This document shows positions 20,242 through 25,128 of a DNA stretch of 64,000 bases, in pieces. The notes beneath the pieces were generated by a model. The model made no database searches. It was not told where the DNA came from and worked only from the letters and a program-made list of their open reading frames with translations. The stretch spans positions 16,020-80,019 of the forward strand of contig CALAMO010000002.1 in the NCBI GenBank assembly GCA_937925855.1, written 5' to 3'. Both the position numbers and the translations under genes were made by a program. The DNA comes from an uncultured Thiotrichaceae bacterium (lineage in GTDB: Bacteria; Pseudomonadota; Gammaproteobacteria; Thiotrichales; Thiotrichaceae). Positions within the stretch are counted from its first letter, which is position 1. Each line of letters begins with the position of its first letter.

Positions 20242-21510
20242 CTAATCTACGCGGTCTAGCTTACGCAGCGCACTAGGCAGTAAGCGCAGGTCTGCTAGCC
20301 CAGCGACCAGTGCCTTACCCAGCGTCGCCTCGTCCTCATAAACCATCTTATACAGCTGCACTTTCATTGTGAGCGCGCTGCTGAGTATGATGCTAAACAA
20401 GGTGATAAATGATCCCAGCGCCAGCGTTGAGATGCCGGTGATACCCTGTCCGATGGTACAGCCCAGCGCCAGTACGCCACCAACGCCCATTAATACTGCC
20501 CCTATCAAGTGCGTACTGAAGTCTTTAGCGTTAGCAAACCACTCGAAGCGAAAGCTGCGTGTCACCAGTGACCAAATAAATGAACCCGCGACTACGCCTA
20601 AAAACGCCATAATGCCAAAGGTTAACAGGGCGGGATTAAAGCCGCTCATGCCATAGCCCAGCGTTTGACCCATAGGGTTGATGAAGGTAAAGGACTGTGG
20701 ATTAAGGCCGCTGCCCGCCGCGGGTCGACCTGTATCAGAATCTGCCAGCATATCCCATTCGCTGTAATAGCCGAACAGGCTCATGGTCTCACCATCCGCA
20801 TCAACCCGGATAGTGCTAGTCACATACCACGCGGCCAGGACGCACAGGCCAATAATCACCCCGCCCCAGAGGTGGTCGCTATTCCGGCGAAACTCACTGG
20901 ATTTAAAGATCAGTGCCAGCAGCGCGACACCTAAGGCTAGACCCACCAGTAAGCGGGTATGCAGTGCGCCTGTTTCACCGGAAATCATTGAGCCGAGGTC
21001 TTGCCCTGTGTTCAGTGAAACGCTGAAAGGCTGCAGCCAGGGGTAAAATAAAGCGGAGTATAAGGTGATGTCAGTGCCGGGAAAGGGGGTCACCATAAAG
21101 TAGGCGATGAGGGCGATGACCAGAATGACGAACACGGATTTCAGGTTGCCACCGCCGAGACGCACCATGCACTTGTTGCCACAGCCGCTGGCCAGTGTCA
21201 TACCGATACCAAAGAGCAAGCCCCCCAATAGGTTTTCCAGCCAAATAAAGCTGCTACTGCGATAAGGAGGAAAGGAGCGGTCGGCCTGCACGGCATCCAC
21301 TGATTCTAGGACGACGACGCCAATCAGCGCGACCGCAATGGCCAGGAGCCAGGAGCGGAAGCGCCCCATATCACCGATGTTCACCCAGTCAGACACGGCC
21401 CCCATTGTACAAAAATTGGTTTTGCTGGCGGTGGCGCCCATAATGAAGGCCAGCACAAAGCCGGTACATAATAAAAACCATTGAGCTGATTCAAAATTTT
21501 CAAATGTCAT
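20242..21510 (-). CDS. YeeE/YedE-family inner-membrane protein (putative sulfur-compound transporter)
   Basis: 422 aa and polytopic. Two Cys-containing re-entrant motifs (LASGCGNKC and LALGCTIGQG) are typical of the family. Confidence 0.78.
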   Translation of the reverse strand: MTFENFESAQWFLLCTGFVLAFIMGATASKTNFCTMGAVSDWVNIGDMGRFRSWLLAIAVALIGVVVLESVDAVQADRSFPPYRSSSFIWLENLLGGLLFGIGMTLASGCGNKCMVRLGGGNLKSVFVILVIALIAYFMVTPFPGTDITLYSALFYPWLQPFSVSLNTGQDLGSMISGETGALHTRLLVGLALGVALLALIFKSSEFRRNSDHLWGGVIIGLCVLAAWYVTSTIRVDADGETMSLFGYYSEWDMLADSDTGRPAAGSGLNPQSFTFINPMGQTLGYGMSGFNPALLTFGIMAFLGVVAGSFIWSLVTRSFRFEWFANAKDFSTHLIGAVLMGVGGVLALGCTIGQGITGISTLALGSFITLFSIILSSALTMKVQLYKMVYEDEATLGKALVAGLADLRLLPSALRKLDRVD

Positions 21511-21617
21511 GACACGCTATCCTTTCAAACGGCTTATTCACTCAGCGCTAGTATATAAGCTAGCGCGGAGGATAAATAATCGTACTGAAGAGATAGAGAT
21601 CATATCGGCTATGGGCA

Positions 21618-23492
21618 CTAAAGCCCTAAGCCTCCCACATGGAGGACAGGTGTCTCCTGTTGGCAATGTATCGTAAATGCCGCATTGAGGTCGGGTGGAA
21701 TATCCTGCACGGTCACCCAAATTTGACTTAAATTTCCCGAGGTGGCCGAAGTGAGGCTGTTGATGGTGGCCGTCGTGCGTTCGGGGTCAAAAAATGCGAA
21801 GGGCTCGTCCAGAAAAATAAATTGGCCATCGGTATCGGTGCTGGCGGCTAAAGTGCCGGCGAGTGACATGCGCATAGCGAGTGCAATCTGACGTTGGGTA
21901 CCCGCTGAAATTTCCTCAAAGTCGAGGTAGTCACCTTTGGCTTCTGACAGCACCCGGGGCATAAAGTTATTGTCTATTTCCAGTTTGTTGTAACCGGATT
22001 GTGTGAACTCAGAGAGCAGACTGCTACAGCGGCTATGCACAATTCGATTAAAACTTTTGATAGCGTGACGTGACGCACGTTGGAGTAAGGTTATCCCCTT
22101 TGCCTTGAGCTGGATGTGATGCTGCTGCTGTTCCAACGCGGACTGGTAGTGGCTCATTTCGGTATTAAGTGCCATGTACTGGTCAACGCGCTGCTGTTCT
22201 GCAGTCGCCTTCCTATCGACAGCGTCGAAGCTGCCGCTTAGCCATTCGCCCTGATTTTCCAGTGCCATGCTTACGCCGTCTGCGGCAGCGATGGTATCTA
22301 GTGGAGCAGCCCTGAAGTCACGGACTTGTTCAGACAGGTCTCGTAGGTGATCGGGGTCGCTCTGCCAGGGTTTCAGGTCGTTGACATTGGCGTCTAACAG
22401 CTCATGCTTGAGGTGTTTTGCAGCGTCTGCATCGAGTAATCCAGTCAGGTCGCGGTTAAGCTGGTCTGCTCCATCCTGTAAAGTGCTAGCCAGTGCGAGT
22501 GATTTATTGCGCAGTGGATCCAGGCAATTGCGCCCGAGGTGCCAGTCGTAAATCATGAGTAAACTGGTCAGGATGGCGACAATGACGCCACCCCATAGCA
22601 AAGTGCGTCCCCAGGTATTCTGCTCATTTTCTGTTACTGGTCGAATCGAATCCAGCAGCTCTGGCATGAAGGTGAGCAGCGCCCAGGACAGGATCGCCAA
22701 CAGCAGAAAAATAATACCGAGGGCTGTTATCCAACCAGTCAGCTGACTCCGGCGCTTAAAACGGTGGAATAGGCCGTGCTGTTGTGTGTAGGATTCACGA
22801 ACATCGTTGATGTCATGGGTGAGTTTCAGGTTACCTTGATGTTGGGTAGCCAGCGTTTCACGCAAGTCAACTAAGGCGGGTAGGTAGTCCTGGTCGATAG
22901 CTAGGGTATCGAGTTTGGCATTGATTGTGGCTGATTGTTGTTCTAAGTCAGTGAGATTTGTGGCGTCGGCTTCCTGCTCTTGACGCAGTTCATTGTTGAG
23001 CTTGATATAGGTTTTTATCCCCGCCATAGCCTGTAGGCTTTCTGCGTCAGCTTGACCGTCTTCGTTAACCTTCTGGCCCCAGTAGAACGTACGAATAAAG
23101 GCTGGATAGCCATAGCCCAGAATTTTTTTAATGGCAATGGTGACGGCATCACTACTGTCAGCCAGCGTGCGGCCTTCCTCAATACTCCAGAGCGAAGCGG
23201 TTTGAGTGCCTGAGGTGTCGGCCATGCGGGTGAGGCGGTACTGTTTGTCTTTGTGGCTAAAAGACAGGGTGATTTTTACGGCTTGTTGACCCCAGCGCAC
23301 CAGTTTACCGATTTGTTCACCGCTGAGTTTATCAGTGCGGCCAAAGAGGGCGAAACACAGCGCATCGCCGATGCTGCTTTTACCAGCTTCATTATTACCA
23401 TTGACAGCAATTAAACCACTTTCCGGTAAATTTTCGAGGTGTAGATTTTCGTATTTGCGGAAGTCCTCCGCCTGGAGATCTGTAATAATCAC
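21618..23492 (-). CDS. Rad50/SbcC/RecF-like ABC ATPase with a central transmembrane hairpin
   Basis: Walker A GNNEAGKSS (aa 32-40). Signature-like ISAGTQRQIALAMRMSLA. Walker B FIFLDEPF. Two hydrophobic helices lie at aa ~252-276 and ~296-315 (nt ~22548-22739), where a coiled-coil apex would be expected. The GTG start overlaps the upstream stop (GTGA). Confidence 0.8.
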   Translation of the reverse strand: MIITDLQAEDFRKYENLHLENLPESGLIAVNGNNEAGKSSIGDALCFALFGRTDKLSGEQIGKLVRWGQQAVKITLSFSHKDKQYRLTRMADTSGTQTASLWSIEEGRTLADSSDAVTIAIKKILGYGYPAFIRTFYWGQKVNEDGQADAESLQAMAGIKTYIKLNNELRQEQEADATNLTDLEQQSATINAKLDTLAIDQDYLPALVDLRETLATQHQGNLKLTHDINDVRESYTQQHGLFHRFKRRSQLTGWITALGIIFLLLAILSWALLTFMPELLDSIRPVTENEQNTWGRTLLWGGVIVAILTSLLMIYDWHLGRNCLDPLRNKSLALASTLQDGADQLNRDLTGLLDADAAKHLKHELLDANVNDLKPWQSDPDHLRDLSEQVRDFRAAPLDTIAAADGVSMALENQGEWLSGSFDAVDRKATAEQQRVDQYMALNTEMSHYQSALEQQQHHIQLKAKGITLLQRASRHAIKSFNRIVHSRCSSLLSEFTQSGYNKLEIDNNFMPRVLSEAKGDYLDFEEISAGTQRQIALAMRMSLAGTLAASTDTDGQFIFLDEPFAFFDPERTTATINSLTSATSGNLSQIWVTVQDIPPDLNAAFTIHCQQETPVLHVGGLGL

Positions 23493-23689
23493 TTGTGCTC
23501 TCCATGGATGGCGCGCTCTAGGCGCTGGAGCACTAGCTTAGCGGCCTCGCGGTAGAGGTCATTGTCTGGATCGTCGGGGTCATCATTGTTAAGGATATCC
23601 TGTTTACAAAATTCTGCAAATCTGCGCGCTGCTACGCTTTTGAGACTGTTTTTATCCAACCAGTCCATGTCCATGGAATCGGATGACAC
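23489..23689 (-). CDS. Small acidic protein (66 aa), translationally coupled to the ATPase
   Basis: GTG start at 23689, preceded by GGAGG with a 6-nt spacer. The stop overlaps the ATPase start. Asp-rich centre NNDDPDDPDND. No family recognised. Confidence 0.55.
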   Translation of the reverse strand: MSSDSMDMDWLDKNSLKSVAARRFAEFCKQDILNNDDPDDPDNDLYREAAKLVLQRLERAIHGEHK

Positions 23690-23895
23690 GCTTCACCTCC
23701 ATACGAATAACGCTAACCGCACCTCTGATAATGGGAATAATTATGCTATTCAGAGGCCATCTTAAGATTAAACTCTATTTGGGTACTGACTACTGCTAAC
23801 TCTATCGAATGATACATTATTTAATATTGAATGGTACATCAACAATACGCGCGTAAACTAACCCGCGTGAATTGCTTCATGCGGGTTGAGAATGG

Positions 23896-25128
23896 CTACC
23901 TGTTTTCGGTTTGCATACGTTCCAGTCGATTAGCCGCTAAGCGGGCAGCGTTGGTCTCGGGGAAGAAACGTACGGTATCTTCGAGCGTGCGCCGGGCAAA
24001 ATCCCACTGGCGCAGCTCATAAAATGAGTAGCCCAGTTTTAAGGCAGCGCCTGGAGCCTTTGGGCTGCTTTTATGGTTCTTTAAAACCTGCATAAATTCT
24101 TCGGTCGCGCCGGCAAAATCCTGCTGTGCATACAGCGCTTCACCGAGCCAGTATTGCGCATTGGCGACGAACTCATGTTCAGGATAGTCGTTAATGAAAG
24201 CACGAAAGGCAGGGATGGCGCTTGCGGTATCATTAACCAGCAGTTTGTAAGCCTCGTTGTAAGCGGCCTTGGCTTGATGGGTTGTTGGTAGCGCAGCGGA
24301 AGCTGTTGGCGCGACCTGCTGTAGGCTGGGAGTTACTTGTTGTGTGGTTGGCGTGACCTGTACGCTTTGTTGGCTGTCTCCATTTACACGGGCGCTGGTC
24401 GGGCGGGTGTTCGTTGCGCGAGACGCTGCATTCCTGTCCTGCGTGCCATAAAAGTAATAGCTGTCCGGGCTGTTTGGATCGATTTTCTCCGCTGTGGCTT
24501 GCGCTTCTGTGTCGTCAACAGCCACCGTGGCCCGACGCTGCTCTTCGCCGCTTAGCTGCGCGCGTGCTGGGTCACCGCTGGAGTCACTGTCTACTTCGGT
24601 GCTGGTCTCACCTGCTGCTTCCGCTCCTGTTTGTGTTGCTGTGACTGCTGCCGCCCCTTGTGCTGTCGACTCAGCACTCAGCGCAGCCTCAGCGTTAGAC
24701 GTGAGCGTAATTGCTGAGGGTCTGGCGACAATCGTTCCTGGCGTGGGTAGCGGCTCTGCTGCGGTGTTGCCTAATGCAGGTGTGGCGTTCGCGGTGTTAC
24801 TGCTTGGTGCCGCTGGCTCGGGGGCGGTGCGGGCAGTGTTCGTAGCCGTTTGGCCCGCCAGGCCTTGCTGTTCCAGATTACTGATGCGCTTATCAATGTT
24901 GAGGAAGCCGGTACGCTGTGCCGCTCGCAGCGCCGTTAGGTCTTTGCGCAGTACTTCATTCTCACCGCGCAGATTGCTGATTTCCAGCTCCAACTCACTG
25001 AGACGCTCTAGTAATTGTACGGCGACTTCATCAGAAACTGCGTTTGCGGTTGACAGTGGGAGGACACCCACCCAAAAAACAAATGATACGGCTAATAGAC
25101 GTTGATTAAGCTTAAGCATGTCTCGCAC
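23896..25128 (-). CDS. cpoB: Cell-division coordinator CpoB (YbgF), with a long low-complexity insert
   Basis: Signal peptide, N-terminal coiled coil, C-terminal TPR block (YWLGEALYAQQDFAGA...LKLGYSFYE). Last gene of the tol-pal cluster. Confidence 0.87.
   Translation of the reverse strand: MRDMLKLNQRLLAVSFVFWVGVLPLSTANAVSDEVAVQLLERLSELELEISNLRGENEVLRKDLTALRAAQRTGFLNIDKRISNLEQQGLAGQTATNTARTAPEPAAPSSNTANATPALGNTAAEPLPTPGTIVARPSAITLTSNAEAALSAESTAQGAAAVTATQTGAEAAGETSTEVDSDSSGDPARAQLSGEEQRRATVAVDDTEAQATAEKIDPNSPDSYYFYGTQDRNAASRATNTRPTSARVNGDSQQSVQVTPTTQQVTPSLQQVAPTASAALPTTHQAKAAYNEAYKLLVNDTASAIPAFRAFINDYPEHEFVANAQYWLGEALYAQQDFAGATEEFMQVLKNHKSSPKAPGAALKLGYSFYELRQWDFARRTLEDTVRFFPETNAARLAANRLERMQTENR

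Follow-up and report, generated by a model that had tools for sequence, protein, structure and literature searches.

What kind of machine is encoded by a Rad50/SMC-like ATPase gene whose product carries two strongly hydrophobic helices in place of a hinge or zinc hook, and which is coupled to an open reading frame of only 66 codons? The pair lies in a 64,000-nucleotide stretch of DNA from an uncultured Thiotrichaceae bacterium, which is called the window below. Direct reading of the window places both genes on the minus strand, with the following layout and translation signals.

23489..23689, minus strand: small partner gene, 66 aa (VSSDSMDMDW...), from the open reading frame list.
21618..23492, minus strand: Rad50-type ABC ATPase with a predicted transmembrane hairpin at the coiled-coil apex, 624 aa.
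23696..23700, minus strand: Shine-Dalgarno sequence GGAGG, then the 6-nt spacer TGAAGC and the GTG start of the small ORF, by direct reading.
23489..23492, minus strand: GTGA overlap of the small-ORF TGA stop and the ATPase GTG start, by direct reading.

The GGAGG-N6-GTG signal and the GTGA overlap with the 624-aa frame had been described in an earlier, sequence-only reading of this locus, and our direct reading agrees. The SD/start context GGAGGTGAAG(A/C)GTG is kept in relatives L009-L012 and L021, and the junction between small ORF and ATPase is overlapping or abutting in most of 80 loci. The GTGA overlap is predicted to couple translation of the small protein to that of the ATPase. Upstream of the pair in the window are cpoB/ybgF, pal, tolB, tolA, tolR and tolQ, and downstream is a YeeE/Sulf_transp gene (neighbors identified via clustering with Pfam-annotated orthologues), so that the position between tol-pal and YeeE given previously is correct.

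The 624-aa protein matches the Pfam families AAA_23 (3e-15) and SMC_N (4e-10). Comparison of the family profile with the PDB gave matches to Rad50 of M. jannaschii (2.2e-35), T. maritima (1e-16) and P. furiosus (1e-13), to E. coli SbcC (2e-9), and to SMC proteins at 1.6e-7 or weaker. With the AF2 model of the ATPase (pLDDT 82), the top Foldseek matches are Mre11-Rad50 and SbcC/SbcCD heads (1.7e-18 to 1e-16), ranks 1-7 being all Rad50 or SbcC. The head motifs were located as follows.

23373..23399, minus strand: Walker A / P-loop GNNEAGKSS, aa 32-40, aligned to Rad50 GENGSGKSS.
23070..23084, minus strand: Q-loop YWGQK, with Q140 invariant (alignment and conservation).
21888..21911, minus strand: ABC signature variant ISAGTQRQ, aa 528-535, aligned to Rad50 LSGGEQ.
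21786..21824, minus strand: Walker B and D-loop QFIFLDEPFAFFD, aa 557-569 (reading, alignment and conservation).
21702..21725, minus strand: switch region QIWVTVQD, with Q596 at the Rad50 His-switch position.

Among 329 relatives, 47 positions are conserved at 95% or more, and all catalytic motifs are among them. Walker A residues G32, N34, E35, G37 and K38 reach at least 95%, signature residues S529, G531 and Q535 are invariant, and C610 is likewise at least 95% conserved, with C46 a further conserved cysteine. The N- and C-terminal thirds are modeled as folding into one Rad50-type nucleotide-binding head with complete motifs for ATP binding and hydrolysis, and the split-head assignment of the sequence-only reading is borne out by motifs, profile and fold. 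The invariant Q596 aligns in the profile alignment with the His of VSHD in P. furiosus and of ITHH in M. jannaschii Rad50. This His-to-Gln switch suggests slow hydrolysis and a long-lived ATP-engaged state, by analogy with degenerate ABC sites.

In the AF2 model, two long helices leave the head and pair as an antiparallel coiled coil, each arm being about 95-100 residues long (roughly 14 nm; helices at residues 160-275 and 288-345 / 397-496, pLDDT mostly 80-94). Across the 329 relatives the base of this coiled coil is the most conserved part of the ATPase outside the head, and the FTxxxY motif at the base of the C-terminal arm matches Rad50 FTEGKY. The arm bases and the segments at the opposite end are listed below.

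22974..23033, minus strand: base of the N-terminal arm with conserved M156, G158 and E172 (conservation profile; AF2 helix starts at 160), a candidate partner-docking region.
21990..22061, minus strand: base of the C-terminal arm and head entry, with F481, N482, T497 and Y501 invariant.
22665..22739, minus strand: predicted TM helix 1 TGWITALGIIFLLLAILSWALLTFM, aa 252-276, after RFKRRSQL on the cytoplasmic side.
22608..22664, minus strand: predicted periplasmic loop, aa 277-295, net acidic, beginning with P277.
22545..22607, minus strand: predicted TM helix 2 RTLLWGGVIVAILTSLLMIYD, aa 296-316, followed by a basic cytoplasmic flank.

If these segments were buried, soluble helices, and if the small ORF were a chance frame in the leader region, the whole construction would be an artefact. 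Hydropathy, the charges of the flanks and the AF2 model are the basis of the predicted hairpin topology. Each of the two segments, however, is about 20 residues long with a Kyte-Doolittle 19-residue mean above 2 (2.63 at aa 255-273, and 2.07 at aa 297-315), and they form the tip of the two-helix coiled coil (TM helix 1 continuous with AF2 helix 203-275, TM helix 2 within AF2 helix 288-345), where AF2 places no globular domain that could bury them. Two hydrophobic segments are found in 313 of the 329 relatives, and a third was never seen. The TM helices and the loop are poorly conserved in sequence, and their hydrophobicity is kept. The ratio of K+R to D+E in relatives is 4.27/0.74 before TM helix 1, 1.44/2.69 in the loop (median 28 aa) and 3.47/1.22 after TM helix 2; given these positive-inside flanks, the heads would face the cytoplasm. 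P277 is invariant in a 21-sequence alignment and kept in about 70% of the wider family. Family members P0001-P0025 lack a CxxC in their middle third, whereas all 87 of the next-best homologues have a CxxC hook there and lack a comparable pair of hydrophobic helices; nor does the ATPase have a Pfam match to SMC_hinge. These observations uphold the earlier claim of two hydrophobic helices in place of hinge or hook, and support an apex that is a conserved transmembrane hairpin, predicted to cross the inner membrane twice with cytoplasmic heads and about 20-28 residues outside.

The other half of the artefact explanation concerns the small ORF. A 60-70-aa ORF is the only conserved companion of the ATPase, and in 78 of the best 80 of 473 genomes a homologous ORF adjoins the ATPase gene on its upstream side, where it is conserved as a protein at identities from 97% down to 12%. 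Its SD and start are conserved and its length is stable across relatives. The pair also occurs in every metagenomic context looked up, and the partner still accompanies ATPases of only 28% identity as well as those of the 750-aa subclass. Eleven protein clusters match the small protein at E<=5e-19, and it has no match in Pfam, NCBIfam, PADLOC or the PDB. Its AF2 model (pLDDT 74) is a helix-loop-helix with helices at residues 19-34 and 43-62, carrying the conserved motif RFAEFC...(F)D..Y..A..L.

23588..23635, minus strand: helix 1 of the small protein, VAARRFAEFCKQDILN, with near-invariant F24, F27 and C28 (AF2 and conservation).
23504..23563, minus strand: helix 2 of the small protein, NDLYREAAKLVLQRLERAIH, with conserved Y46, A49 and L52 (AF2 and conservation).

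The protein in the window is acidic (net charge -5). Its description as Asp-rich holds for the window and the closest relatives, to which the loop DDPDDPD is limited, but not family-wide, where an acidic helix-loop-helix is the shared feature. Pairwise identities of partner and ATPase correlate (r=0.83). The recurrence, in 78 of the best 80 of 473 genomes, of a 60-90-aa ORF that abuts or overlaps the start of an ATPase with a two-helix hydrophobic apex is far beyond chance, and the sequence data support the small ORF as a dedicated partner inherited together with the ATPase, as had been proposed. The artefact explanation is effectively refuted, and the architecture, namely a Rad50-type head, a coiled coil, a membrane hairpin and a coupled small protein, can be stated with high confidence.

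The distribution and the surroundings of the pair bear on what this architecture is for. Conservation was measured on the 329 relatives, carriers on the best 80 of 473 genomes, and neighborhoods on 88 loci. The pair is conserved in hundreds of bacteria of the Thiotrichales, Chromatiales and Magnetococcus; named carriers are Thiothrix, Thiolinea, Achromatium, Thiogranum, Sedimenticola, Ca. Thiodiazotropha, a Solemya symbiont, Endothiovibrio, Chromatiaceae and Magnetococcus (M. massalia among them), together with Leucothrix and Cocleimonas. No curated family covers the pair, and the NCBIfam equivalog scores are far below cut-off (Rad50, 65.5 bits vs 847; SbcC, 31.6 vs 1420). At least five different neighborhoods were found, with the pair intact in each. 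The tol-pal adjacency that had suggested envelope surveillance as a possible role is seen in Thiothrix/Thiolinea only; elsewhere the pair follows trxA-rho (Cocleimonas/Leucothrix), rnb (Chromatiales/Sedimenticola), or tadA/guaA or radical-SAM genes (other lineages). Clustering and annotation of the neighbors in 88 loci revealed no adjoining Mre11/SbcD or kleisin gene, in line with the earlier reading, and these neighborhoods are also free of nuclease, helicase and recombination genes. The only Metallophos match is a divergently oriented 5'-nucleotidase, two to three genes upstream in 4 loci.

In the window, as in about 18 genomes of Thiothrix/Thiolinea, the genes ybgC-tolQRAB-pal-cpoB are directly followed by the pair in the same orientation. 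The pair could encode an inner-membrane ATPase co-expressed with tol-pal as an accessory of Tol-Pal/CpoB envelope constriction, acting in division or outer-membrane maintenance. This adjacency is, however, confined to one lineage. In the window, cpoB is followed by a hairpin with 12-bp arms (23860-23887), and ahead of the small ORF lies a 206-nt AT-rich spacer with an SD of its own; across loci, the upstream regions are enriched in T-rich terminator-like words. Being short and variable, the periplasmic loop offers little to contact Tol proteins. Such an accessory role appears quite improbable.

A sulfur or redox function, e.g., as a thiol- or persulfide-responsive ATPase, would explain the restriction to sulfur-oxidizing lineages, since the named carriers are mostly sulfur oxidizers or their relatives. 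A same-strand YeeE gene is downstream in about 10 loci and a rhodanese gene in 6 loci of another clade, and cysteines are conserved in both proteins (C28 of the partner, C610 and C46 of the ATPase). On the other hand, the taxonomic pattern in the best 80 of 473 genomes may reflect no more than vertical descent in related basal Gammaproteobacteria, the YeeE and rhodanese neighbors are lineage-specific, and C28, kept in about 90%, is replaced by Y, F, S or G in some members. We know of no precedent for a sulfur or redox role of such an ATPase, and consider this explanation improbable.

The sequence-only reading had also suggested a defence-type module. An anti-phage or anti-plasmid system of this kind would use the ATPase to sense foreign DNA or a phage protein, with the TM hairpin either acting as an effector that permeabilizes the membrane or placing the sensor where DNA enters; combinations of a sensor ATPase and a TM effector are common among defence systems. 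PADLOC returns weak matches to ABC/SMC-like defence ATPases (mad3, 2.6e-16; PbeC, 4e-10; LmuB, 2e-9; DndD, 3e-6), and Lamassu LmuB and Wadjet JetC are among the Foldseek matches. The PADLOC matches, however, are limited to the generic head and weaker than those to Rad50: mad3 aligns only at head positions 2-320 of 374, spanning the whole insert, and the PbeC, LmuB and DndD model matches are fragmentary (1e-10 to 1e-6). The partner genes of MADS, Pbe, Lamassu and Dnd are all absent. The pair is chromosomal and was seen once per genome in the best 80 of 473, its two proteins evolve in parallel, and it has lineage-stable synteny among housekeeping genes (tol-pal/cpoB, trxA-rho, rnb, tadA/guaA). 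No relatives were found in 2.9 M viral contigs or 50,697 phage records, and 72,556 plasmids gave head-level matches only, with no family member. A defence role is unlikely, and this part of the earlier proposal is not sustained.

The explanation that we favor, at somewhat less than even confidence, is a self-contained chromosomal two-gene operon for a membrane-integral ABC ATPase of the Rad50 branch and a small acidic subunit, which together would form an ATP-gated clamp. Two ATPase chains would dimerize via ATP-sandwiched heads and probably via their membrane hairpins too, the hairpins serving, like a hook or hinge, as a constitutive apex-dimerization element that would close a compartment under the membrane; dimerization through the hairpin is purely what we infer. 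The small subunit may bind the conserved coiled-coil base or the head, like the helix-loop-helix Rad50-binding domain of Mre11, and tune or read out the ATP cycle. The clamped substrate would be DNA because of the homology with every characterized relative, and, lacking a nuclease, the complex would not cut this DNA but tether or sense it at the inner membrane. This DNA-clamp function is a tentative proposal, possible more than probable. Several observations speak against it: the 88 neighborhoods contain no DNA-related gene and 76 upstream regions no LexA box, and the head lobes, N-arm and partner are acidic (net charges -4.5 and -6.9, -10, and -4.3, respectively). By eye on the alignments, basic residues near the DNA-contacting strand-loop-helix of Rad50 lack conservation. 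The partner has no detectable similarity, in sequence or fold, to the Mre11 Rad50-binding domain or anything else.

The acidic cytoplasmic parts, a poor fit to DNA binding, and the neighborhoods devoid of DNA-related genes would suit a nucleotide-driven membrane tether or remodeler, in which ATP-dependent head dimerization, between molecules anchored in two membranes or in separate regions of a single one, draws cytoplasmic membrane faces together, possibly those of intracytoplasmic membranes or of invaginations holding sulfur globules or magnetosomes. Alternatively, ATP-driven movement of the coiled coil would be passed into the bilayer. A head, a stalk, two closely spaced TM helices and a minimal external loop are consistent with such a device, and carriers are enriched in Chromatiaceae, Thiothrix, Achromatium and Magnetococcus massalia, which have internal membrane systems or membrane-bounded inclusions. 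However, Leucothrix, Cocleimonas and Sedimenticola, for which we know of no internal membranes, are carriers as well, and, to our knowledge, no ATPase of the Rad50/SMC class acts on membranes. The poor conservation of the TM helices and loop is as expected of a passive anchor, and an amphipathic helix or other fusogenic element is absent. Membrane tethering would be a rather unlikely function. In architecture only, the protein resembles atlastin and mitofusin, which likewise have a nucleotide-dimerizing head, a helical stalk, a TM hairpin and a very short luminal loop; those are dynamin-like GTPases, whereas here the head is that of an ABC ATPase, and the folds are unrelated.

Returning to the clamp, the closest known system is Rad50/SbcC, the best match to the head in both sequence and fold. 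The two share a split ABC head with Walker A, Q-loop, signature, Walker B, D-loop and FTEG(K/R)Y, and an antiparallel coiled coil between the head halves, whose apex is the expected place for joining two chains. They differ in that the family has a predicted TM hairpin instead of a CxxC zinc hook, arms of about 95-100 residues rather than hundreds, Gln in place of the His switch, an acidic protein overall, and, in the 88 loci, an adjoining small helix-loop-helix gene rather than Mre11/SbcD. As an analogy only, the Rad50-binding domain of Mre11 is a two-helix element of similar size on the Rad50 coiled-coil base, and the partner here has two helices with a conserved hydrophobic face; the latter, however, is free-standing, without a nuclease domain.

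The SMC complexes (Smc-ScpAB, MukBEF, Wadjet JetABC and Lamassu LmuB) likewise combine an ABC head and coiled coil with an apex dimerization element, and their small non-SMC subunits attach to the head or neck. They are among the Foldseek matches at 1e-16 to 1e-11. Unlike them, the present locus has no hinge, kleisin/KITE genes, or LmuA or JetD effector, its sequence similarity to them is weaker than to Rad50, and its protein is predicted to be membrane-integral. The 60-70-aa companion, which has no Pfam match, is too short for a kleisin.

Among described proteins, we know of a hydrophobic apex only in SbcE/YhaN, a Firmicute-only protein of about 960 aa in total, which the sequence-only reading had named as the nearest architecture. 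In B. subtilis, SbcE/YhaN is an SbcC-like SMC-family ATPase without a CxxC hook, with heptad-repeat arms of about 300 aa each and a hydrophobic central domain that has a conserved proline and is insoluble on expression; it acts in double-strand-break repair and transformation (PMC2811018). Its partner SbcF (YhaO) is an SbcD-like nuclease. Compared by description, the architectural parallel stands in the hydrophobic central region, the conserved proline (P277 here) and the lack of CxxC. It fails in size and partners, since no nuclease adjoins the ATPase here and a small helix-loop-helix partner is not described for YhaN. Membrane insertion is not demonstrated for the SbcE domain in PMC2811018. 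The match to Pfam AAA_27 (the YhaN-type N-terminal family) is limited to residues 1-78 and reaches 22.5 bits, the cut-off being 22; in the 750-aa class it falls below the cut-off.

PMC6969161 reports the Rad50 hook to be interchangeable with an SMC hinge, and a modular apex is plausible. Against these systems, the pair may represent a previously undescribed SMC/Rad50-like inner-membrane machine, for which we would put the chance a little below even: a transmembrane hairpin would stand in for the hook or hinge and a small subunit for Mre11 or kleisin, in a clamp on DNA or membrane that would belong to the core housekeeping of Thiotrichales, Chromatiales and Magnetococcus.

The two genes lie co-directionally on the minus strand, with tolQ, tolR, tolA, tolB, pal and cpoB on their 5′ side and a YeeE/Sulf_transp gene on their 3′ side, which confirms the location between the tol-pal operon and a YeeE gene given by the sequence-only reading. 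The 66-aa ORF with its GGAGG-N6-GTG start and GTGA overlap, and the Walker A, signature-like and Walker B motifs of the 624-aa protein, were all read in the sequence as claimed there, the strand (minus) being the sole addition. Within the tetranucleotide GTGA, the TGA stop of the small ORF overlaps the GTG start of the ATPase.

23489-23689, minus strand: small partner ORF, 66 aa, VSSDSMDMDWLDKNSLKSVAARRFAEFCKQDILNNDDPDDPDNDLYREAAKLVLQRLERAIHGEHK; GTG start, with GGAGG 6 nt before it
21618-23492, minus strand: ATPase ORF, 624 aa, GTG start
ATPase aa 32-40: Walker A, GNNEAGKSS, by direct reading
ATPase Q140: Q-loop
ATPase aa 528-535: signature, ISAGTQRQ
ATPase aa 557-569: Walker B/D-loop, QFIFLDEPFAFFD

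A minus-strand hairpin at 23860-23887 (12-nt arms, 92% complementary, 4-nt loop), located 8 nt past the cpoB stop and followed by no T-run, may be a terminator or RNA-stability element parting tol-pal/cpoB from the pair. Scanning the window region for sigma-70 promoters and terminators returned one promoter-like site, on the wrong strand; no Rfam element was found in 21400-24000, and no LexA box in 76 upstream regions. The words enriched in upstream regions were terminator-like GC-stem/T-run words and clade-specific promoter-like words, and nothing else; the T-runs upstream of the pair are terminators of the preceding genes. An imperfect 32-nt palindrome, TGATGTACCATTCAATATTAAATAATGTATCA (23810-23841, minus strand), is located in an AT-rich spacer ~120-150 nt upstream of the small ORF, and an inverted repeat, CCTCTGA/TCAGAGG, at 23722-23756 in the likely 5′ leader of the pair; both resemble operators or leader structures. 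The palindrome half-site had no match in the other upstream regions except one with 3 mismatches in the relative L052. A further inverted repeat (21541-21570; 11-nt arms, 8-nt spacer) sits in the 107 nt that separate the ATPase stop from the yeeE start, and may be a terminator or a yeeE operator.

By computation, the ATPase has a Rad50-type, catalytically complete head. When a profile of 21 relatives was compared with all PDB sequences, Rad50 ranked top (M. jannaschii, 2.2e-35; T. maritima, 1e-16; P. furiosus, 1e-13), with E. coli SbcC at 2e-9 and SMC heads no better than 1e-7. The AlphaFold2 (AF2) model (pLDDT 82) consists of a bilobed head, built from residues 1-158 and 497-620, and long helices at 160-275, 288-345 and 397-496. 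Foldseek against the PDB returned Mre11-Rad50 and SbcCD chains first for this model (1.7e-18 to 1e-16), and SMC, Lamassu LmuB and Wadjet JetC below them. The split Rad50/SMC-like head claimed earlier is thus supported by both searches, each placing Rad50 first. Furthermore, every catalytic motif aligns in register with Rad50 at the residue level, including the Rad50-like FTxG(R/K)Y motif, and nearly all of the 47 positions conserved at ≥95% in a 329-sequence family alignment are ATP-site residues. The His-switch position of Rad50 (VSHD in P. furiosus, ITHH in M. jannaschii) is taken by an invariant Gln, Q596 (21705-21707), in 329/329 relatives. Going by degenerate ABC sites in general, this replacement suggests slow hydrolysis, and the protein may be a slow-hydrolysing, switch-like ATPase.

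No curated family in the Pfam, NCBIfam and PADLOC scans covers either protein. The small protein had no match in any of the three, and the ATPase matched generic SMC/Rad50 head domains only in Pfam (AAA_23, 3e-15; SMC_N, at its cut-off), Rad50, RecF and SbcC at the head only and far under the family cut-offs in NCBIfam, and generic ATPase head domains only in PADLOC, a result that counts against the defence-type module suggested earlier. Membership in the defence families whose models the ATPase touches was rejected.

Beyond the head, computation gives a two-helix stalk of ~95-100 residues per arm and, from hydropathy, flank charges and the AF2 model, a transmembrane hairpin at the apex with the heads in the cytoplasm. 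The hydrophobic stretches (19-residue Kyte-Doolittle means: 2.63 for aa 255-273, 2.07 for aa 297-315) form the membrane-distal ends of both coiled-coil helices in the model, with a low-confidence loop of ~12-20 residues between them and no globular domain at the apex able to bury them. Exactly two such segments occur near mid-chain in 313/329 relatives, and a third in none. Family-wide, the 15 residues before segment 1 carry on average 4.27 K+R vs 0.74 D+E, the apex loop (median 28 aa) 1.44 vs 2.69, and the 15 residues after segment 2 3.47 vs 1.22; the heads are placed in the cytoplasm because these charges fit the positive-inside rule for an N-in/C-in hairpin. The transmembrane helices keep their hydrophobicity as their sequence drifts, just W270 and P277 standing out, and are therefore membrane-anchor-like. 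Among the next-best homologues outside the family, 87/87 have a CxxC hook in the middle third and no comparable hydrophobic helix pair, thus the hairpin sits exactly where the zinc hook would. The proposal of two hydrophobic helices replacing the hook in the middle of the helical region therefore held on hydropathy, conservation and flank charges, and we regard the architecture as a whole as very probable. In proteins of the 620-aa class, the N-terminal arm falls short of the C-terminal one by ~80 residues, and the C-terminal arm must fold back close to the membrane. Longer family members, of ~740-770 aa (proteins P0024, P0137, P0158 and others; locus L089), form a second class, in which an insertion of ~110-130 residues extends the N-terminal coiled-coil arm.

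The partner is, by computation, a translationally coupled, co-evolving helix-loop-helix protein. A homologous small ORF lies directly at the ATPase start in 78/80 species-representative genomes, and an ORF of 64-72 aa either stops at the ATPase start or runs into it in seven metagenomic contexts across the family, which reach 28% ATPase identity and take in the 750-aa subclass (one ORF was called longer, from an upstream start). The dedicated small partner predicted earlier is thus conserved with the ATPase across genomes. Eleven homologous clusters were found at E≤5e-19, relatives keep the same SD and GTG start context, and the pairwise identities of partner and ATPase are correlated (r = 0.83, 2926 genome pairs). 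The conserved pattern consists of an N-terminal (L/M)xWL, [RK]RFAEFC..[DE], a variable acidic loop, and (F)D...Y..A..L[VI]..[KR]L; AF2 predicts helices at 19-34 and 43-62 with a loop between. Foldseek with this model gave nothing under E 4.5 in the PDB. The best PDB match of a profile of 33 small proteins was a LysR regulator C-terminus, which was taken as chance (E 0.016, 24 residues). In a Cocleimonas-related subgroup (loci L053, L059, L068), the partner reaches 116-131 aa and ends in a C-terminal stretch that is long, low in complexity and very acidic (net charge to -16). Cysteines are conserved at C28 of the partner (23606-23608; ~90%) and at C610 (21663-21665; ≥95%) and C46 (23355-23357; ~80-90%) of the ATPase; a metal or redox site common to the two proteins is conceivable.

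A genome scan placed relatives in 473 GTDB species representatives, of which the best 80 belong to Thiothrix, Thiolinea, Cocleimonas, Leucothrix, Achromatium, Thiogranum, Sedimenticola and other Chromatiales, with cultured strains among them. An exhaustive HMM search (E≤1e-30) gave 527 clusters at 50% identity, in length classes of ~600-650 and ~740-770 aa, and a further search at least 825 clusters at 90% identity, named only 'AAA family ATPase', 'exonuclease SbcC' or 'Rad50/SbcC-type AAA domain-containing protein'. That the pair is an artefact has a negligible probability. Named carriers in the latter search include Chromatiaceae, Endothiovibrio, Ca. Thiodiazotropha, a Solemya symbiont and Magnetococcus massalia; apart from the last, the named carriers of both scans are mostly lineages known as sulfur oxidisers. 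Gene neighbourhoods are fixed within a lineage and different between lineages.

Thiothrix/Thiolinea and the window: ybgC-tolQRAB-pal-cpoB, then the pair, then yeeE
Cocleimonas/Leucothrix: trxA-rho, then the pair
Chromatiales/Sedimenticola: gcvT-like gene and rnb, then the pair
Fourth arrangement: tadA/guaA, then the pair, then a rhodanese gene
Fifth arrangement: radical-SAM surroundings

In the neighbourhoods compared, the pair has no constant third companion and no adjoining nuclease gene. An accessory role in Tol-Pal is highly improbable, tol-pal adjacency being limited to one lineage. A sulfur- or redox-linked function, weakly suggested by which lineages carry the pair, by YeeE and rhodanese as neighbours and by conserved cysteines, is very unlikely. 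A sulfur-trafficking gene lies downstream on the same strand in two clades (yeeE in L022-L028 and the window; rhodanese in L033, L043, L047, L051 and L054), which could be coincidence or a functional hint. No relatives were found in 2.9 million viral contigs or in 50,697 phage genomes, and 72,556 plasmids gave four head-level matches only (coverage ≤27%). By computation, the pair is chromosomal and vertically inherited. A defence system, as the sequence-only reading had offered, is quite unlikely, given the core-genome synteny of the pair, its single occurrence per listed genome and its absence from mobile elements. Two loci from differently labelled MAGs, L073 (Aquificaceae; trxA-rho synteny) and L087 (Bathyarchaeota; gcvT-rnb synteny), are probably mis-binned gammaproteobacterial contigs rather than a wider distribution, since their synteny matches gammaproteobacterial clades. 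The sole candidate found for an informative domain fusion in the family, a C-terminal DUF7662 past the head (E 6.9e-12) of P0223 (881 aa, single metagenomic contig), may be a true fusion or gene-calling read-through.

We tentatively infer a DNA-clamp function as a possible role of the pair. The ABC heads would pair around two ATP molecules, and in the bilayer the transmembrane hairpins of two chains would come together and do what a hook or hinge does, joining the apices constitutively; swapping the Rad50 hook for an SMC hinge is reported to be possible (PMC6969161). The conserved hydrophobic face of the partner would pack on the coiled-coil base (M156-E172; F481/N482 to Y501), the most conserved part of the ATPase beyond the ATP site. 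The helix-loop-helix Rad50-binding domain of Mre11 docks on the coiled-coil base in this way. The ring closed beneath the membrane would hold DNA, a substrate proposed because every characterised relative known to us clamps nucleic acid. SbcE/YhaN, an SbcC-like ATPase of B. subtilis, acts in double-strand-break repair and transformation (PMC2811018). Without a nuclease, the role would be tethering or sensing. Against a DNA function stand the net acidic heads and stalk and the lack of a DNA-related neighbour or SOS box, and no basic surface like the Rad50 DNA-contact region is conserved in alignments judged by eye. A membrane tether or remodeller, by analogy with the architecture of atlastin/mitofusin, would account for this acidity and for carriers with internal membranes or membrane-bounded inclusions; it is unlikely and has no known precedent among ATPases of the Rad50 class.

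All characterised Rad50 and SMC proteins known to us are soluble; the two groups are the universal ATP-driven DNA clamps. SbcE/YhaN is a poorly understood Firmicute protein. At the level of structure, the pair is robustly described as a Rad50-like ATPase integral to the membrane and accompanied by a novel small subunit, and we infer its function. The ATPase derives from the Rad50/SbcC branch and works in the manner of its members, but lacks four of that family's defining traits: it has no zinc hook, no Mre11 partner and no His switch, and its scores fall short of the curated family cut-offs; therefore, it is not filed as Rad50 or SbcC. SMC identity was rejected, the protein having neither hinge nor kleisin. 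The finding, which would surprise SMC/Rad50 specialists, is of a Rad50/SMC branch built into the membrane in several hundred species, with the nuclease partner lost and a tiny subunit gained. Should it act on DNA, the pair would tie the chromosome or incoming DNA to the inner membrane through a dedicated, ATP-gated connection; otherwise, a role away from DNA would be seen for the first time in a Rad50-class ATPase. The question is experimentally tractable, since several carriers are in culture (Thiothrix caldifontis, T. fructosivorans, Cocleimonas flava, Leucothrix arctica), and the pair (620 aa + 66 aa) is a compact test case for the exchange of coiled-coil apex modules. A literature search for a membrane-anchored Rad50- or SMC-like protein turned up the SbcE/YhaN paper alone, which concerns the one hook-less SbcC-like protein with a hydrophobic centre described to date (PMC2811018). 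The parallel with YhaN/SbcE drawn earlier holds at the level of architecture, for which it is the nearest precedent, but not in size, lineage or partner, and the pair would also illuminate SbcE/YhaN.
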